Of a DNA stretch of 64,000 nt, positions 39,111 to 49,301 are shown one piece after another. Position 1 is the stretch's first letter, and each line of letters starts with the position of its first letter. Source of the DNA: Podarcis liolepis (taxonomy: Eukaryota); the NCBI GenBank assembly GCA_965112155.1, contig OZ218098.1, one strand, 5' to 3'. The position numbers were made by a program, and so were the translations under genes. The notes under the pieces are model-generated. The model saw only the letters and a list, made by a program, of their open reading frames with translations. It searched no databases and was not told where the DNA came from.

Positions 39111-40130
39111 AAAAAGCATATATCTTCAGAGACTTGAACTTTCCTCTCTGTTGCCTTAGATTGACTCTGAAAGTTGAAGAGGATAAGAATAGCAAGCAGC
39201 CTTAGATCTCTTTTCTGGACCACGTTAGCCAGTGGCCTTGGGGTTTCCCCCCTTCCTTTCTCCTTCAGTGTGTGGCTTTGCTCAGTTGCTTGAGTCGCCT
39301 GGACCTATTCCCCCCTCCCAGCACACACACCCTGCTTCTGGCTCAGTGCGGTATGGAAAGGATTGTATACGAGGATCCCTTCCAATTCCTTGAGCTGGCT
39401 TTTCTCTTGACCTGTATCTGCCTTCTCCTGCCAACTACTTCCTAGGTCATTGTATGGAAATGTTGGAGCAGGGAGAAGGCCTGAAGACAAGGAGGGGAAT
39501 ATATTACTGTGGTAGAGATGTCTTAAGTTGCCTAAGAATATGTGGTAATATTAGGTGAATGGAAGCTGATCACCAAAAAAGGGAAAGAAAGGAAAAAAGT
39601 AATCAGGCTGTTAAGTTTGCCTGCTCTAAGTACACCCTACGTAAATCAGTGCTTTGGTTCATGTTAATAAATCCTACACACAGATCACATGCACACACCT
39701 ATTACAGCCAGGTAAGAGAAGTAAAATACGGTGCAGGGCATCCACACCAACGTCTTATCCTCCAGAAGCCCAGCTCAGGAGGGGAGGAAGGAAATGAACA
39801 GGGCATCTTGGGGATTTTTGGCTTCAGCATGAACTCTATGCTTTCTCCAATGCAGCTGCTTCATTATGCAGGGATTTTTAAATGTATGAACTGGGGTGTC
39901 ACAATTTTGAGTTGTGCTTGTTGGGTTGGGTTTGGTTTTCACTATAATCTGCTGGTGGAAAGTGATGGATTTGCCCATTTCCCCTCTCCTGATTAATTGA
40001 TTCAGTTTCTTTCCAAAGCCAAGACACAGCCCAAAGATCTGAATATTGGCTCATAAAGACTTTCTAAATGTATTGAAGCTCTTCATGTGCTTGGAACGCC
40101 ACTTTTCTCACAGTTCAATTGAACTTTCAG

Positions 40131-40330
40131 GAGTACAGTCGCCACGGGAGAAGTCACCAGAAGAAGCCGAAGCCCCTGTACGGAGACGTACCACCAGTGA
40201 AGGCCAGTATGAGAACAGTCCCCAGGATCCTAGTTCACCACGAAGCCCCACAGTTCGTTCTCCAGTTCACTGTGTCTCACCGGAGGTGGTCAGCACCATC
40301 GCTGCCAACCCTGGAGGAAGGCCCAAGGAG
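40131..40330 (+). CDS. TNS1: Tensin-1 coding exon (200 nt, phase 1-0): [12 protein letters not shown]...GQYENSP...ANPGGRPKE
   Basis: Acceptor ctttcag/ and donor GAG/gtgctt. Matches the TNS1 RRR..S(D/E)GQYEN and NPGGRPKE motifs. Confidence 0.95.
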
Positions 40331-41243
40331 GTGCTTTTCTTTTTCTTATTAAAACACTATTTTCCCTTCTGGCCTTTCCATGCTTGCATGCATGGAAACA
40401 CAGAAGGGGATATATGTCTCTTTGACCCCAGCACTTGATAGTAGGTAGGGAAGGGCCAGGGTTAGGAATGGCAGTGAATTTAGTTTGGCAGTAGAATGGA
40501 TAAAGTAAATGGCACATGCATGGGTAGGCCTTCCTAAGTATTCCTTGGGTGGAAATTGCTTCTTCAGTTTTGGAAGAGGTTGCAATGGTTTGGGACTCAG
40601 AAATGTCCATGGTTGTTCTCATGTCCAACATGATGGAATACCAGTTGCAACCTGTGTTGCTGAAACTGGGAAGAGCCACCATCAGTCCCTCCTATTCTGG
40701 CCACTTGCTGGAAGCCTCTGGACCGTCACTATATTCTGGGACAGATTCAAGTGCATGTTGGAAATTTAGACCTGTGCAATCAAAGTGGATGAAAGTCCTC
40801 TGTTGCTCTAGTGCCACAAACCCACTTTTTAATTTTGGGAATGGACTTTTGCAATTAGGAAAGTGACAGGGAAGTGCACTGAAAATGTGGGATCAATGAC
40901 TGACAGGAAGATGCAAATGAATCAGAATGAATACTCAGTAAAGCAAATTATTATGAATGCTCAGTTAACGGGTCATCTGTAGGAGCTGTTTCTGACAGTA
41001 TGGGGAATGGAAGCCAACTACAGAAGCAGAATGTTTTCTGAAATTAGGAGCGGGAGAAAGGGTCATAAAGGCAAGAAAAGGAAGCATAGGAGCAAGCAGT
41101 TTAAAATTGCAACCAGACCAGGTGGGAGATGGGGGAAGCATCTGGCAAAGAGAAGGCAGGCATTTCTCCTGCCCCAATTTGTGGGGGAGAGGTCAGGAAG
41201 GTCCTGAATTTTGATAACTGATTCTGCTTTCCCTCTCTTACAG

Positions 41244-41319
41244 CCCCATCTCCACAGTTACAAAGAGGCCTTTGAAGAGATGCAGGGGACCTCTCCAAGC
41301 AGTCCACCTTCCAGTGGTG
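41244..41319 (+). CDS. TNS1: Tensin-1 coding exon, short form (76 nt, phase 0-1): [25 protein letters not shown]
   Basis: Acceptor ctctcttacag/ and donor GTG/gtgaga. [13 protein letters not shown] is a conserved TNS1 block. Confidence 0.93.
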
Positions 41320-41382
41320 GTGAGACCTCTCCCCCAACCCCTGCCTTCCCTGTCTCACCACAAACCCCTTACAGTAACCTAC
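41320..41382 (+). CDS. TNS1: In-frame exon extension through an alternative 5' splice site (63 nt): [21 protein letters not shown]
   Basis: Second donor TAC/gtaagt (consensus) at 41382/41383, same phase (1) as the first donor, with no stop between them. The peptide contains the tensin-family PTPAFPVSP motif. Confidence 0.8.
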
Positions 41383-43947
41383 GTAAGTTCCATGGCAGGG
41401 GATGGGAGAGGGGGCATTGGTGGGTGGCTTGGGCAAAGCCAGACTTAAGAGGCAGTCGGTCAAACCGTTCTCAGCGTCCCAACACCCACCACCATTTTAA
41501 TCACCCCTTCACTTTCTCGTTTCTCTCTGTCTGCCAATCTTGGCTTCTTCCCCCATCACCTTTCATCTCTGCTTGCTGTAAATTTCTCACAGTGTCACCA
41601 ATAAGTATGCATTCGTCCATGATAATTATCATCACGACAGCAAAGTTTTGCAACTCTTGGGGGGATCGATTATGGTTAGAGCCATTAGCTACCAGCAAGT
41701 GGTGAAGAGGAGCCACAATTTCTGAATGTCAGCATAAACCATAGCAGCAGAGTCCTGTGCTGTCTTCTACACTCTCCTTCTCATTGTCTGCCAGACAAGG
41801 AGGTTCACAATTGTTCATAAATTGTTCACTTTCCAAAGTGTTGGCTGTGCTAGCTAGTTACAGCAAAAAACAGTAAAGAGCCTTGCAACTCCTTGAAGAC
41901 TGTTTGCTGATTTTGAAGATGCCACAAGGCTCTGTTATTATTGTATAAAAGTTCTGCAGTTAAGATAGCAGAACTGCGCAACTTACGGCCTGCTAAGCTT
42001 AGTGAAGCCCTCTAGCCGTGTAGGGCAGCCTACTTGGGGCTTGATAATATTTCTGTTCTTGCTGTCAACTAGCGATTGCAGGATTGGAGTTGGGTGTGGC
42101 TTGTTAAACCACAGCATATGCCTGGTGGGTTCATTTGGCTATGTAGGTCATCCATTCTGCAGGCCTATTTTAGAGAAACCCATCCAATGTTTTTGGTACA
42201 CAATATCTGCCTTCCTAGATGCCAAGGGGAAAAAGTTAAATTAGCCTTGCTCTCCATAGCATGGACAAATACACAAAGTTGGATTAACAAGAATGTCACA
42301 TGGCCCTGACAGTAGTTTCCCCATATCCATCAGCAACACTTAGTAGTTATGTATATGAGTTATGTAATGCACTTATAACAATGACATGATTTATGAACCT
42401 CTATGAAAACACTTACATAGGCAAATTTGCTTCCCTGCTGGGGGAATTTTATACCACACTGTGAAGATTCCCAGTTCATAAATTCTAGATGGTACATAAG
42501 TTCAGGTTTGTTATTATGAATGAAGAATTCCCCATCCTGTGAAGCATCTGGCAGGATCATGGACTTAAATTAGTAAGTACATTTCCCTGGCTGACAATTA
42601 AAAACATATCTGCAAGCCCTGGTGCATAAACTGGAGAAATCCCTTTGGTCTGATCATTCAGAGATACTCTGACCAGTGTAATGTTCCAGGGATTTTTTTA
42701 AAAAAAGTTTTTTTTTTAAGGGGGAGCGGAATCACATACTGTACCTATAAACCTGCCTATCACATGTGTCAGTCAGTTTCAGCACTATTAACTGCTTTTC
42801 TAGACAGAAAAACAGTACCCCAAATCTGCCAAAGTTGATGGGTTAGAAAAGGCAAACAGTCCTGGTTATGCCTAACACCTGAGCTGAGCTGTGGAATGTC
42901 CCAAAGGAGAAGTATTTAAAATTTAGGTTTTTGGCACACAGATCCTACTTTAGGCAATTTTTACGTGGCTTCCTCTCTTTATGGGAGAGGGAGAGAGAGG
43001 CAGCTGTTTTCTGCAGGTGGGAGGAAATAAAAATTAACCCAAGCCCTAAAGACACCCTTGAAATACCTCCACAACAGGACACGGGCTTATGCAGAACAGA
43101 TGGAGGGATGCGTCAGCTCTTTCGCATGGAAAGGTCCACTGTTCTTCCATCCCAAGCGCCCAGCGTTCAAGGCCCTTTGCAAGTTCGTTCTGCCTTCTGT
43201 TTGCACTGACAAAAACTGATGGTTGTAAATTGGGACCAGATACTGCAGTGCACAAAATCTTTCAAAACTGATGTGTGCCATTTAAAGCAGGACCTATGGG
43301 CTGGATGCAGCCCCTTGGCCTCTCCATCTGCCCTGCTGACCTCTCCTGTGCAGCCACATTTCTCCCATTGCTCAGCTGTTTCTGCCAGTCAGCTGAGTGG
43401 TGGCAAAGGAGGTGGGAGATTGCAGGGAGGTTCAGACCTCGTCTTCTGTCCTATCCCACTCCCCTCTCAAAAACACTGATCATGAGGAACAATGGAGCAA
43501 TGAGGGAAGAGATGCAACGGCTGCAGAGTCCCACTGCTTCCACTGGCAGCTTGCTGCATTTCTGTGCTGAGAAAAAGGAAGCTCATTTCTCAGCATCCCA
43601 AAATGAAATGTGACCAGGATGTATGGATATGTGTGAATCGTGGAGGGGTATGCGTATGAATGGAGGTGCAATTGTGTGAATGGGAATAGTGTGGGGATAA
43701 GCGGATGGGTATGAATGGGGTATGCATATGTAGATAACTGTGAATGGCGTGTGTATTTGTGTATATAGCTTTGGCCCACCCCTGGCATATGCCCCTCCCC
43801 CTAAGCAGTTACAAGGGAATGCAGTCCCTGGACTGAAAGAAGTCCCCAACCCTGGTATTGGGTAGAAAGTTCAGATACAAATTTAACGGATAATAGCTCC
43901 CACTCCCTTCTGGGCAGTTTTGTAAGGAAGGACAGGGTATATATTTC

Positions 43948-44324
43948 TCTTTTTTAATAATTTTTTTTATTCATTTTCCAAACATGTTTATAGAATTAAC
44001 TCATATTAACTCTCACATTCATCAATTTTTGACTTCCCTCAGTTTCTCTGCCAATCTTTCGTTAAATTTTCTATTGTTAACGCATTTCTGAACTTATTAT
44101 TGCCTTTAACCATTCCTTTTCTTTTTTACAATATTTCTTAATTTTTCACAGAGACTCTTCAAAACCAACAAGCGTTGTCTGTGCATCACATATGCTTTTC
44201 AGATAATCTGTAAATTTCCCCCAGTCCTCGATAAACTTTTGGTCTTTCTGATATCGAATCTTCCCAGTCAGACTATCCAATTCCGCATATTCAGTCAGTT
44301 TCATTCTCCATTCTTCCACTGTTG
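43948..44324 (-). mobile_element. 5'-truncated L1 LINE insertion
   Basis: Perfect 18-bp TSD ggacagggtatatatttc (43930-47, 44325-42) and an A-rich tail on the minus strand. The minus frame reads TVEEWRMKLTEYAELDSLTGKIRYQKDQKFIEDWGKFTDYLK...*, resembling the squamate L1 ORF2 C-terminus. Confidence 0.88.
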
Positions 44325-45235
44325 GGACAGGGTATATATTTCATACATAGAGTGCATATACTGCAGAGGCCACAACTTATTCCATAGGTGTGGACATATG
44401 TGCACACGCACACACCAAATGAGGAATGAATGGTTTTCATTCTACAAAGATACAGCTTTAGGGCATTTGCTGCGTTGCACACCTGTTCCTCCTTCAGTTC
44501 TCAAATGAAAGTGAACAACATGTAGATTTGCTTCTCTTTCTTTATTTCTTTTTTTAAAATGCAGTCTTCGCCATTTTAAGAAAGAAATGGAAATTGAGGA
44601 CAATAGCAAAAGCCCACACCAGCAGGGATTCTATTGCACTAATAGGTGCAAATGTGCCTTTTTAATCCAAAGGCCAAAGAGGTGCATGTACTCTTTGGTC
44701 TGTAGCTCTTCAGTGGAAGACGTAAATCTAGCTGCAAATTTATGTGTGTTTCAATGTAGGTATGTGTGTGTTTAGATCTGTCAGAGTTTGAAGGGGCTAA
44801 TGGGGACTGAGAGTGTGTCTTCAGAGTTACGGTGAGACCCTTTGACGTCCATTTGTAACCAATCGAAAGCTGTTTGCAGCTGATCTGTGCTGTCAGCAAA
44901 AAACAAACAAACAACCCCTTGTAAAGGAAGAACCAGGAGTTCACTGAATGCTCCTGATTTTTCCTTTGTAGCCACATCCTTTCCTGCTTCACACCTGACA
45001 TTATATTACATTCAAATAGTTTATGTGTTTAGATAATATTTGATATTGTTGTTTCTCTTTGATAGAACACATTCAAAGTTGCATCGGGGCAATGAGGAGA
45101 CACTGTGCAGTATACCATTTAGCTGAGTCAGTAGTTAACTTGATCTCAACGGACAGGTGTTCCACTCATCTGAGAGGGAAATTCCAAAGTAGTAATGCCA
45201 CACGCAACCAAACTACGGTGTGATAGTAGCTTGTA

Positions 45236-45485
45236 CAGTCGTACCTTGGATCCCAAACACCTTGGTACTCAGATGTTTTGGCTCCCGAACTCTGCAAACC
45301 AGGAAGTGAGTGTTCCGGTTTGCAAATGTTCTTTGGAACCCAAACATCCAACATGGCTTCCATGGCTTCTGATTGGCGGCAGGAGCTTCCTGCAGCCAAT
45401 CAGAAGCCGTGCTTGGGTTTCTGAATGTTTTGGAAATCAAACGGACTTCTGGAACGGATTCTGTTTGACTTCCAAGGTACAACCG
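45236..45485. mobile_element. Tc1/mariner (Tigger-like) MITE
   Basis: Imperfect TIRs cagtcgtaccttgg/ccaaggtacaaccg flanked by TA, with internal palindrome ggcttctgattggc...gccaatcagaagcc. Confidence 0.85.
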
Positions 45486-48434
45486 TACTTATGAAGCACA
45501 AGCAAAATATTAGAAGTATAAGTGTGTAAAATGAATCCAGGCTGTTAACCGTGGCACATCTGGTCTGTTTATGCCATGGATACTGTTGTTGTATGCCCAG
45601 GCCTTATAATCCACAGATGCCTTGAGATTTCTGTGGTACCTCAGCTTCTGAGGCCGTGGGTGAAAACCTGGTCTTTAACTTCCTCTTGCATGCTCTGTCT
45701 TCCTTACTTTTCTAGTCAAGCATGCCTCTGAATGACTAACCCCTTGATAACTTGGTGGTGGGTTTTTAAATGTAATTAATTTAGCTTTGAACAGTTCTGC
45801 CAATATTTCATCTGGCAGTGCTAACATGGCTAAGTGCATACCAACAGCAATGAGCCAGTGAGCAGCTGGGAAACAGCAAAAATCTCAAAAGTAGCAGACC
45901 AAAATTTTCAGAACATTCTGATTCCAAACTGGAAGCATCACTGTTGCTTCCAGAAGAGGCTGGCTCTTATTTCAGAACAGAACTGGTACCCCCATTTATT
46001 AACACCCCAGTTTTTAATATCTACTGTCAGTTATCATTCATAGATTTTTTAGCAGGGCCTTTAAAAATGCATCCACACTGGTCTTCTTCCCAATGCAGAG
46101 TGAATTGTGACAGATATGTTTATGGAAAACTAAGGTGAATGAGATCCTGAGCAATAATAGCAAGAAGTAGCTTAATATTGGTCCCCAAAGAATAGGTAAA
46201 ATGAAATCCTCCAAGTTTCAGCTGAGCCTCATTCATTGATGTTAATATTTAAAGGCCACATCCTCAATGTGCTTGTTTCAAGGGTTAGATGAAGAGTACT
46301 TCCAATCTTCACAATCCTCTCTTGGCTAAATATAATTTGCTTGGGAAGCACATCACTGTCAGTGCAGAAAGTGTCTTGGGAGTGCCAGGGACATTTTTGT
46401 ACTTTTAGTTGCATAATACAAGAGCAATTAACACAATTTAGCCATGACTAAATGTCATCCCATTGATTTCATGGGAGCACACAGCTCAATCCCATGCATA
46501 TTCACTCAGAAGTAATTCATAGTGATTTCAGTAGGATTTACTCCCAAATAAATGTGCATGGGATTACAGCCTTCATCATGACTGACTCTTCCTTCACATG
46601 TACAGACATGCTGTGAGTTGCACATTCATTCTGGTTCTGTTGAGCCAAGAATGACATTTCAAATCCTTCCATAGACTCGACCTGCTACATATTCTTATAG
46701 GGCTGAAGGTATCTCTATAGGTAAGCATGTGACTCTATAGCTTTTTCCTACAGAACAGTTACAGATCCACTATGTGAACTGATTTGGTAACAATGCCTGT
46801 CATCTTTGCCAGCAAGCTGAACAAGGCACTTGAGGTGCTATCAGCAAAGCCCACAAAGAGCCTGCTGTACAGGCTCTTGAGGATGCAGGCTGAGCACTGA
46901 GCTATATGATATTCCAGACATGGACTAGCTGCTTTTGGAATTGCTTGTTTCCCAGTCATTCATTGGTACTGAGCCATTAATCCTAGCCAGCCTAGCTAAT
47001 CCATGATGAAATATATGCTCTTGGTAACTGGCTTTCCTTTAATGCTCCTGCCTCCCTCCCTCCTCCTGCTGTGTCCCCGGCAAGGGTGCCCATCTGAAGC
47101 TGTAAGTCAGAGGATTGCAATGCAAGTAATGGAGAATGTGTCGAATTTTTCCTTAATGGACAATATAGTACTTCATTTGTCTGTGTACGCCCACTCTGCA
47201 AGAGAACTTGAGTTTCAAGTTAGAAAGCCTGAATTGTTTGGAGCTGGTGAAATATGATATCACTTGCAATGATAGCAGTACACTGAAAGAGGAGAAAAAC
47301 CCACATTGGAGTTTTTGTGAGACTTGCTGTTTGGAACACATCTCACGTATACATCTACATCCATTGCTGCTTGCTGTATACATATATATATTAAGTGTAT
47401 ATATGCATGGCTATCCTAAATGTTGTTCTCCTTTTTGATTGGGTAGATATAAAACGAGATATATGTGGATGCAGTCATTCCAATGCTTTGTTGATATGCA
47501 AGTTATACATATAGGCATCTACATATATGATGTATGTTATTTATGATATACAATGCCATTCGTATGCAATGTTTCGAATCCTTCTTGTCTCATGATCCCG
47601 ATCTTTGCAGATGCCATCTCTACCTTGTGGCAAAAACTCAGACATATAAGATGACATACATTATCTATTCATTCATTGCTGTTCTTCAAACATCCTGGTA
47701 ATGGGATGGGGATGCTGCGGTCATTTGCTACCAAGGTTCTCTCTATTGGGTTGTTCTCTTGGGCTTGTAAAGAGAAAATGAGAAGTTGCTATGCTTCAGT
47801 TTCTGCACTAACCCTATACTCTCACAAAAAGCCATAAATGGGAAGGATGGTGATGATTTATTGAAGAAAAGAGGGAGATGGAAACGTGGGTATGTCATCC
47901 CTGTAGATATTTTCTAAGGGATGTTCCACAAAGAAGAAAAGAGGCAGAAAGATCACGGTCCCGTGAAATTATCAGATGCATTCCAGAGACAGCTACCAGT
48001 CCTCCAGTCCTGCTATGTAACATAAGCACCTAATTCCTTGCCAGTGGGACTTTGACTGGTTGCTGCTTCATCACAGGCTCAGTACAGCATCTGAATACAC
48101 ATCTGTAGTTATATCCTTGCTACTGGAGCAAACTTAATAGGCTAAATGTCAGGCCAAGGTTTAAGCTGGAGAAGCTGGGGGCATGATTTTCTTGAAATAT
48201 GGATCTGACCTGCTGAAAACATTATCAGTGTGAAGTAAGTTGTCCACAAAAGCTACTTAAAACAACAACAGCCAACCTTGCTTGCCACACACCTATTAGC
48301 TGTAGTCAATGCTGGGAACATTAATAACTTGAGAGATAACAAATGTCTTTGACTAGTTGTGCTGAGTTTAGTAGTTTGGTGCAAACACAAAGCAAGGTGT
48401 TAGAGTTGGCTGTAGAGTTGCTGTAGCTCCAGCA

Positions 48435-48570
48435 CAGGCATGGGCAAACTCGGTCCTCCAGATGTTTTGGGACTGCAACTCCCATCATCCCTGACCACTG
48501 GTCCTGTTAGCTAGGGATGATGGGAGTTGTAGTCCCAAAACATCTGGAGGGCTGAGTTTGCCTGCGCCTG
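48435..48570. mobile_element. hAT-type palindromic MITE (136 bp)
   Basis: CAGG...CCTG ends, about 58-bp inverted arms, 8-bp TSD ctccagca/ctctagca. Confidence 0.88.
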
Positions 48571-49208
48571 CTCTAGCAGGTGGTCCTGTTTGGGGATGGT
48601 GTAGAAGAGTCCTCTCAGCTACATGCAAACCTTTGAGAGTTAACATTGTTGGAAGAGCTTGCCAAGCTTTCCCCTGAGGAAATCCAGTCTTTGCCACTGA
48701 ATCAGAGCAAACATCAACCAGGTTTTCTCTGGATTGACGTTTCCTCTGATTTTTCACTAAAGAATGGGTTTTCTGGGGGAAAGTGGTGAGGCAAGGGGGA
48801 AAATGTTCAGACCCATGCTTTTCTAGACATGGGACAAGTGCAAGCCTGGATGGAGCCCTAAGTGCTTCAGCCTTCCATTTTGTAGATCCACTGCTCCACT
48901 TGCCTTAAGAAATCACACACTACTGAAGAGAGGGCAATCTTTGTCTCTTCTCAACAGAGAAGCTGTCTGAGACGGGGGGCCTGCTACTGGCAGCCAAATT
49001 CCTGTGGTTTCAGCACACCAATCATCCTGAGTATTTCCAGCCATACATGTATATAGCTAGGATTCAGTTACAACCCTGTTTAGCTATAAACTGGTATTTA
49101 AAAACAAACCTGGAAATGCCTGGATTTCTTCTCCTTTACATTTAATCCACCCTTTTATGTTCTGTTTTGTTGATGCATTTCTTTCGCTCTCTGTATTTTT
49201 GACAACAG

Positions 49209-49301
49209 TGCGCTCTCCACCAGGACTGGCTAAAACTCCGCTTTCAGCACTGGGCCTGAAACCTCACAACCCAGCAGAGATCTTGTTGCATCAAACAGGA
49301 G
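49209..49301 (+). CDS. TNS1: Tensin-1 coding exon (93 nt, phase 1-1): (V/L)[30 protein letters not shown]
   Basis: Acceptor tttttgacaacag/ and donor GAG/gtaagc. Near-identical to the known TNS1 segment [22 protein letters not shown]. Absent from the ORF track. Confidence 0.96.

Follow-up and report, generated by a model that had tools for sequence, protein, structure and literature searches.

Results

The TNS1 locus and its donor pair

The window analysed here, a 64,000-nt stretch of contig OZ218098.1 (assembly GCA_965112155.1) of the lacertid lizard Podarcis liolepis, contains the middle part of TNS1 (tensin-1), the two largest exons of which matched Podarcis, Lacerta and Zootoca tensin-1 at 97–99% in tblastn searches. 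The exon under study was linked to the preceding one by reads over the joint 40330–41244 (four in RNA run X23, four in X24 and one in X21). As the original prediction from the sequence had stated, two in-phase donors, GTGAGA at 41320 and GTAAGT at 41383, lie 63 nt apart, and the 21-aa optional peptide was confirmed in translation. The other claims at the level of letters were equally exact: CCTCTCCC (41326–33) and CCCCTGCC (41338–45) are the reverse complements of 41404–11 and 41394–401, respectively, and the four-run G-quadruplex (G4) motif at 41398–424 is present; across the whole window, the plus strand has three motifs of this kind. All features are collected in Table 1.

Table 1. Features of the TNS1 locus around the alternative donor pair
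Feature	Position	Strand	Evidence and remarks
Upstream TNS1 exon	40127..40330	+	Start approximate; joins 41244; tblastn and reads
Constitutive exon portion	41244..41319	+	Sequence, tblastn, RNA reads
Upstream donor GTG/GTGAGA, giving the short isoform (SSG-VRSPPG)	41317..41325	+	Four X23 reads; X20 contigs; protein clusters
Optional segment, 63 nt, 21 aa, Ser/Thr-Pro rich	41320..41382	+	Sequence, protein clusters, reads
Downstream donor TAC/GTAAGT, giving the long isoform	41380..41388	+	One read in X23, four in X24; X20 contig; clusters
Hairpin H1, 10 bp, 25-nt loop	41317..41361 (41317–26 with 41352–61)	+	Perfect inverted repeat; predicted
C-rich exon arm (5' arms 41326–33, 41338–45), mostly within the H1 loop	41326..41345	+	Sequence, folding
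Nested hairpin H2 (predicted, weak)	41368..41387	+	Folding; lizard–fish comparison
Intronic G-tract, five G3+ runs (3' arms 41394–401, 41404–11; G4 motif 41398–424)	41394..41433	+	Sequence, folding
Proximal intron block resembling bird introns	41383..41505	+	Alignment to read-through translations
Downstream exon, acceptor common to both isoforms	49209..49301	+	RNA reads

The TPxFPVSP motif of the optional peptide recurs in the large downstream exon of lizard, marsupial and fish tensin-1 (P0130 residues 1210 and 1530). The intron is 7.8 kb long; its proximal part (41383–41505) could be aligned to bird introns for ~120 nt by way of read-through translations; a stretch rich in CAC and in pyrimidines comes next. 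Interspersed repeats lie at about 44150–44300, 45250–45490 and 48440–48570, where many unrelated reads stack.

Both donors are used in transcripts and represented in protein models

Junctions were counted in about 12% of two bulk RNA runs (X23 and X24) from a near-identical organism. Both donors were spliced, with upstream-to-downstream counts of 4:1 in X23 (four reads over the joint 41319–49209, one over 41382–49209) and 0:4 in X24, a difference with a Fisher P of 0.048 on nine junction reads in all. Both junctions were of the GT..AG type and shared one acceptor, as defines an alternative 5' splice site event, and a splicing artefact was ruled out by the reads lying over both. No donor junction was seen in X21 or X16 (one single-cell run and one contig set). 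Contigs from a more divergent relative (X20) contained both isoforms, those of the short form stopping at the upstream donor and then continuing into the next exon; X20 and X23 both leaned to the short form. The alternative 5' splice site in lizard TNS1 is real.

Among the protein-cluster members listed (147 in 10 clusters, mostly predicted RefSeq models), 89 were long, 51 short and one of another form, with six unclassed. Both isoforms occurred in nine of the ten clusters, spanning squamates, birds, turtles and a marsupial (+23 aa); the galliform cluster held long forms only, among the members listed. Models also show other alternative splicing close by (from 49301 onward; P0222, P0224, P0002 versus P0008): two turtle models omit exon 49209–49301, from either donor, and models differ by a short ELDGETVVESDE-like insertion behind that exon, the counterpart of the human ventricle-enriched insertion (PMC10592692).

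The downstream donor had been described as the stronger of the pair. Its GTAAGT sequence is as stated, but greater strength was not borne out, the U1 duplex energy being −8.1 for the upstream versus −5.7 for the downstream donor. Among the papers listed in literature searches, titles and abstract openings contained nothing on the TNS1 donor pair or a structure at it; rMATS tables in supplements may list the event.

Copies of the locus in fish, mammals and other lineages

One pattern scan yielded one true orthologue at the DNA level, the teleost locus L002; no orthologous DNA was found in the metagenome contigs, viral contigs or prokaryote genomes searched, and a further candidate, L003, was rejected as a chance bacterial match. 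L002 keeps both donors 63 nt apart, with an optional segment of the same length, and teleost proteins carry this segment. No short-form fish protein was seen among the homologues, in searches biased towards the long form.

In all 15 mammal-type read-through ORFs (one of them named, Saguinus) the upstream donor is read as Gly-Lys, implying that it is GTAA; none contains the optional segment, and hence none has the partner strand of H1. From these 15 read-through ORFs, as distinct from genomes, we infer that the segment was lost in placentals. The splicing event is conserved across orthologues, with both isoforms in the protein clusters and both donor sequences in L002, and absent from the mammal-type 'GK' copies.

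The exon–intron stem is predicted to be strong in this lizard and varies between lineages

The complementary arms had been proposed to form a 16-bp exon–intron stem with the downstream donor in a 48-nt loop and the upstream donor free at its base. A strong exon–intron helix is indeed predicted in this lizard, the inner helix (41338–45 with 41394–401) forming with P 0.89–0.99 in five fold windows, but the outer helix in the claimed register reached P 0.00–0.43, being outcompeted by a slipped register or other partners. The notion of a downstream donor free in a loop was rejected: this donor is predicted to be paired in a nested 8-bp hairpin (41368–76 with 41380–87; H2), the probability of being unpaired at positions +1 to +5 being 0.01–0.12. 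The upstream donor came out free only in the window 41300–41440 and was largely paired in three wider ones. The 3' part of the G-tract has further potential partners in inverted repeats that are imperfect or short (41295–41308 with 41419–41432; 41418–41426 with 41483–41491), and depending on the size of the window these alter the state predicted for the upstream donor.

Compared with shuffled sequences, fold energy gave z −1.05 for 41300–41440 and z −2.73 for the fitted window 41320–41414. When only the intron was shuffled (200 trials), sequences folding as well made up 0/200 at +30, 4.5% at +35, 16% at +40 and 41–54% at +50 to +100. Two nested perfect 8-mers arose in 0.65% of 2000 intron shuffles and a single 8-mer in 35.5%. 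The exon–intron match beats chance only in windows cut to fit, most of the stem energy coming from C-rich Pro codons opposite an intron that is 55% G.

Conservation of the stem in orthologues was not upheld. L002 breaks eight of the 16 pairs, and exon–intron pairing there was no better than in shuffles. Birds were visible only as read-through translations (12 distinct stretches out of 39 ORFs), and all 12 force a mismatch in each helix, even the best possible back-translations giving at most 7/8 pairs per helix. Back-translated with lizard codons, they formed 21–26 exon–intron pairs in another register (41338–54 with 41394–412), mostly failing to beat intron shuffles (fractions 0.04–0.69); as these back-translations inherit H1 and H2 by construction, they were left out of the evidence on both hairpins. 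Sauropsids in general probably have a G-rich arm that can base-pair with the exon, and, judged from the translated stretches, this stem register and this G4 are not general among them.

The G-quadruplex and the effect of covering the G-tract

The G4 motif had a G4Hunter score of 2.15, and the isolated G-tract folded as a three-tier G4 at −7 to −15 kcal/mol. A toggle between G4 and hairpin, the core of the original prediction, did not survive the energy comparison: the best G4 state reached −19.2 versus −40.0 kcal/mol for the stem, about 21 worse under the rough G4 model of ViennaRNA, and with G4 folding allowed no G4 appeared, in any window, in folds holding the exon arm. At a predicted gap of this size the two states would not interconvert in the Bcl-x/INS sense, and the G4 was rejected as an unaided switch. 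The motif is not conserved either. The L002 intron has one G3 run, and runs 1 and 2 are impossible in 12/12 bird types because bases facing the fixed C's of Pro codons cannot be G; the pattern occurred in 2/240 bird back-translations, and another G4 register in birds is possible. At 5' splice sites, G4 motifs are reported to be over-represented on the sense strand, with only limited enrichment at lizard splice sites (PMC9065059).

Covering of the G-tract by a G4 or a bound protein was mimicked by forcing 41394–424 to be single-stranded. The cost of opening the downstream donor was left nearly unchanged (from 4.0–4.1 to 4.2–5.2 kcal/mol), whereas that of the upstream donor rose from 0.3, 7.3 and 8.2 to 14.1, 13.4 and 12.5 kcal/mol in the three windows used. 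These values speak against the claim that a G4 or protein frees the downstream donor from its loop. The general idea that covering alters the fold and the donor ratio stands as a prediction, but not by way of the downstream donor, looping-out or this G4. Since covering buries the upstream donor, any switch would act via that donor and hairpin H1. The candidate binder of the G-tract is presumably an hnRNP F/H-like protein.

A candidate hairpin over the upstream donor

H1 had no place in the original prediction and surfaced, post hoc, through the covering result. It is a predicted helix that covers positions −3 to +7 of the upstream donor, including the U1-binding nucleotides, and it scored z −2.74 in lizard and −2.87 in fish against shuffles, in fitted windows. 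In L002 all ten pairs are kept in the same register, six of them identical, three changed on one side to G-U, one on both sides (C-G to U-A) and none broken; an eleventh pair and a short extension are added there. RNAalifold applied to lizard and fish only returned H1 and the five outer H2 pairs, and not the exon–intron stem. The complementarity of H1 is present in both lizard and fish, and this comparison suggests that H1 is the conserved part and that the intron arm varies by lineage.

With the donor held fixed, a shared helix of at least 10 bp anywhere in the exon arose in 2/1000 synonymous shuffles under the gene's codon usage and 7/1000 under uniform usage (P 0.002–0.007, on two DNA sequences); in the upstream exon, used as a control, the shared helix reached 4 bp. 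Of the ten pairs in H1, some six or seven are dictated by the amino acids (null mean about 7/10). Given the lizard sequence, fish keeps all ten in 4–9% of shuffles, and the covariation score on two sequences was reached by 240/500 shuffles. Between lizard and fish, the upstream exon's four-fold sites are close to saturated (10/27 identical), so shared ancestry alone explains little of the retention of H1. Synonymous identity in the optional segment was 10/14 codons versus 24/56 (P 0.075; P 0.29 at four-fold sites, not significant).

Among 249 pattern-matching homologues, 229 were fully compatible with H1 at the amino-acid level; the other 20 must break one or two pairs (marsupial-type and some fish at the terminal pair, catfish at two pairs). 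In catfish tensin-1 copies (P0330, P0336–P0338) the upstream donor is read as Ser-Glu, which still allows a GT in the same phase, and an insertion ahead of SPQTP would weaken H1. Three near relatives (X3, X6, X7) had zero changes at 41194–41475 (P 0.13, not significant) and were therefore uninformative on covariation. One X20 contig showed 1 difference in 85 nt spanning H1 and its loop (41290–41374), against 5 in the 30 nt that follow (P 0.005, with boundaries chosen post hoc).

Within the exon by itself, opening the upstream donor cost no more than in synonymous shuffles, 53–73% of which reached the value; constitutive donors of the same gene cost 3.8–8.2 kcal/mol to open. In 41300–41440, H1 and the exon–intron stem were mutually exclusive in nested folds of the lizard sequence (−51.6 vs −57.6 kcal/mol). 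In growing transcripts H1 was predicted with P 0.76–0.94 at most lengths up to 41405 (0.23 at 41382, 0.21 at 41401) and was gone from 41411. In the stem state, the upstream donor still cost 7.3–8.2 kcal/mol in two wider windows, so it would be 'freed' only in a relative sense.

H2 is predicted to pair the downstream donor, with CUUAC 41368–72 against GUAAG 41383–87 plus 41374–76 against 41380–82 (−3.7 kcal/mol alone). In L002 its outer pairs are identical (5/5, none varying), and the three inner pairs can still form in X20 despite two changes, in sequence taken from a loose contig end. The fish downstream donor is predicted to lie in an intron-internal hairpin (L002:438–480; z −2.25, fitted window). 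With its −3.7 kcal/mol, no varying outer pair and a different hairpin in fish, H2 was set aside as a regulator and kept as a minor lead. The stretch L002:438–480 reads as the pattern 'F-P-x-x-L-T/A-E-G-x-V-E-L' found in many teleost read-through ORFs, which points to about 45 nt of intron being kept there in teleosts.

Discussion

Our preferred reading, held tentatively and at somewhat below an even chance, is that H1 masks the upstream donor and likely sets donor choice, and that the G-rich start of the intron would undo H1 by pairing with its C-rich loop. During transcription H1 is predicted to form first, hiding the upstream donor; once ~30 nt of intron have been made it would be displaced, the exon–intron stem winning by about 6 kcal/mol in the predicted folds, and the G-tract would be the invading anti-hairpin strand in lizard. 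A free G-tract would tilt splicing to the short form, and a protein-covered one would leave H1 shut and tilt it to the long form, with the additional Ser/Thr-Pro peptide. The effect of a G-quadruplex would have the same direction as that of the protein, but the G4 is too weak to achieve it unaided. Neither the exon–intron stem nor a short-form protein was found in fish (L002 and fish homologues), so the case for a toggle is limited to sauropsids. The candidate hairpin over the upstream donor of this ancient TNS1 alternative donor pair would be undescribed and of a known kind, namely Bcl-x-like structural control of competing donors.

It is also quite possible that proteins alone decide, the conserved purine/G-rich intron start acting as a splicing enhancer at which hnRNP F/H-like factors recruit U1 to the downstream donor, and the helices being by-products of Pro/Ser codons facing G-rich RNA. 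Such a reading fits a stem energy equal to the composition null in neutral windows, a stem register that differs between lizard and inferred birds and is absent in fish, a G/purine-rich tract that persists with an AGAGGG core common to lizard and fish, and the sense-strand enrichment of G4 motifs at 5' splice sites (PMC9065059). However, it leaves unexplained why H1 was kept at 10/10 pairs through four changes and, unless exonic enhancers lie there, why X20 divergence is low at 41290–41374; the lizard G-tract is moreover predicted to be almost fully paired, so that binding would not be independent of structure.

We consider it unlikely that H1 only damps a donor created by Gly-Glu codons, with the isoform ratio reflecting unregulated competition of two moderate donors. 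Fish keep H1 and GTGAG with only long forms seen, the read counts are tiny and X20 and X23 both lean short, as a static damper would have it, but the donor ratio differs between X23 and X24 (P 0.048), annotations include both forms in animals from lizards to the marsupial, and conservation of the intron start extends to birds. Conserved intron flanks are usual beside regulated splicing events.

Very unlikely in our view is the original prediction as a whole, a 16-bp stem that loops out the downstream donor until this donor is released by a G4 or hnRNP F/H at the intron arm, which has on its side the inner helix (P 0.89–0.99), the rarity of nested 8-mers (0.65%), the G4Hunter score of 2.15, long exon–intron stems in another register in bird back-translations, the Bcl-XS precedent (PMC5778605) and the same predicted direction as the H1 model (covered G-tract to long form), and against it the failure of covering to lower the cost of the downstream donor, a G4 ~21 kcal/mol worse than the stem, the breakage of stem and G4 in fish and 12/12 bird types in this register, and the limited G4 enrichment at lizard splice sites (PMC9065059).

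The preferred reading, in which H1 masks the upstream donor, has a bolder evolutionary version that is conceivable, if on the unlikely side. H1, written in synonymous positions, would have masked the upstream donor since the fish–tetrapod split; in sauropsids a G-rich anti-hairpin strand would have arisen in the intron, invading the loop co-transcriptionally and making an attenuator-like two-step switch; and placentals would have lost segment, hairpin and choice together. The outcome would be long in fish, switchable in reptiles and birds, and short in placentals.

If H1 is functional, it would be a compact (about 110 nt) coding RNA structure kept for >400 million years for donor choice, and an evolutionary series (kept, made switchable, lost) could be read in one gene. 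The optional peptide duplicates the TPxFPVSP motif, so including it may change how many copies of a motif for proline-directed phosphorylation or for binding this focal-adhesion scaffold carries. Medical reach would be small, as placental mammals appear to be without the event.

Comparison with known systems

Alternative splicing has been described in the same disordered middle region of tensin-1: human TNS1 has a ventricle-enriched EEDEGKVVVRLSE insertion (PMC10592692), and rat Tns1 exon 22 is controlled by RBPMS/MBNL/RBFOX2 (PMC12721327). The human event sits after the next exon and the rat event is an exon included or skipped; the TNS1 passages of these two papers do not describe the donor pair or an RNA structure.

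In Bcl-x exon 2, the upstream XS donor is kept in check by a stem-loop, which is in competition with a G4 (Q2) and hnRNP F/H (PMC5778605, PMC1540728). The likeness to TNS1 lies in two competing donors, an upstream donor within a stem-loop and G-tract states (paired, G4, protein-bound) that exclude each other. In Bcl-x the G-tract belongs to the inhibitory stem itself, so that a G4 or protein frees the upstream donor, whereas the putative inhibitory hairpin of TNS1 is wholly coding, and the G-tract, situated past the second donor, would act to open it; covering would therefore have the opposite effect to that in Bcl-x. The Bcl-x structure has been probed and mutated, whereas that of TNS1 is a prediction.

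A G4/stem-loop equilibrium operates in INS (proinsulin) intron 1, as cited in PMC5778605 and PMC13126168. It resembles TNS1, in the form given by those sources, in that a G-rich intronic element near the 5' splice site makes a hairpin/G4 switch read by hnRNP F/H; it differs in controlling intron retention instead of donor choice and in having no exonic hairpin over the donor. The TNS1 locus resembles both of these switches, yet departs from them in energy balance and conservation.

The MAPT exon 10 stem and SMN2 TSL2 are hairpins that bury a 5' splice site. Exonic stem-loops ahead of introns belong with them (PMC7293017). H1 and H2 are of the same type, a short local helix that pairs U1-binding nucleotides. 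The described hairpins act on cassette exons or retained introns; H1 is unlike them in that the optional coding segment itself supplies its 3' arm and in that a rival strand is predicted to displace it.
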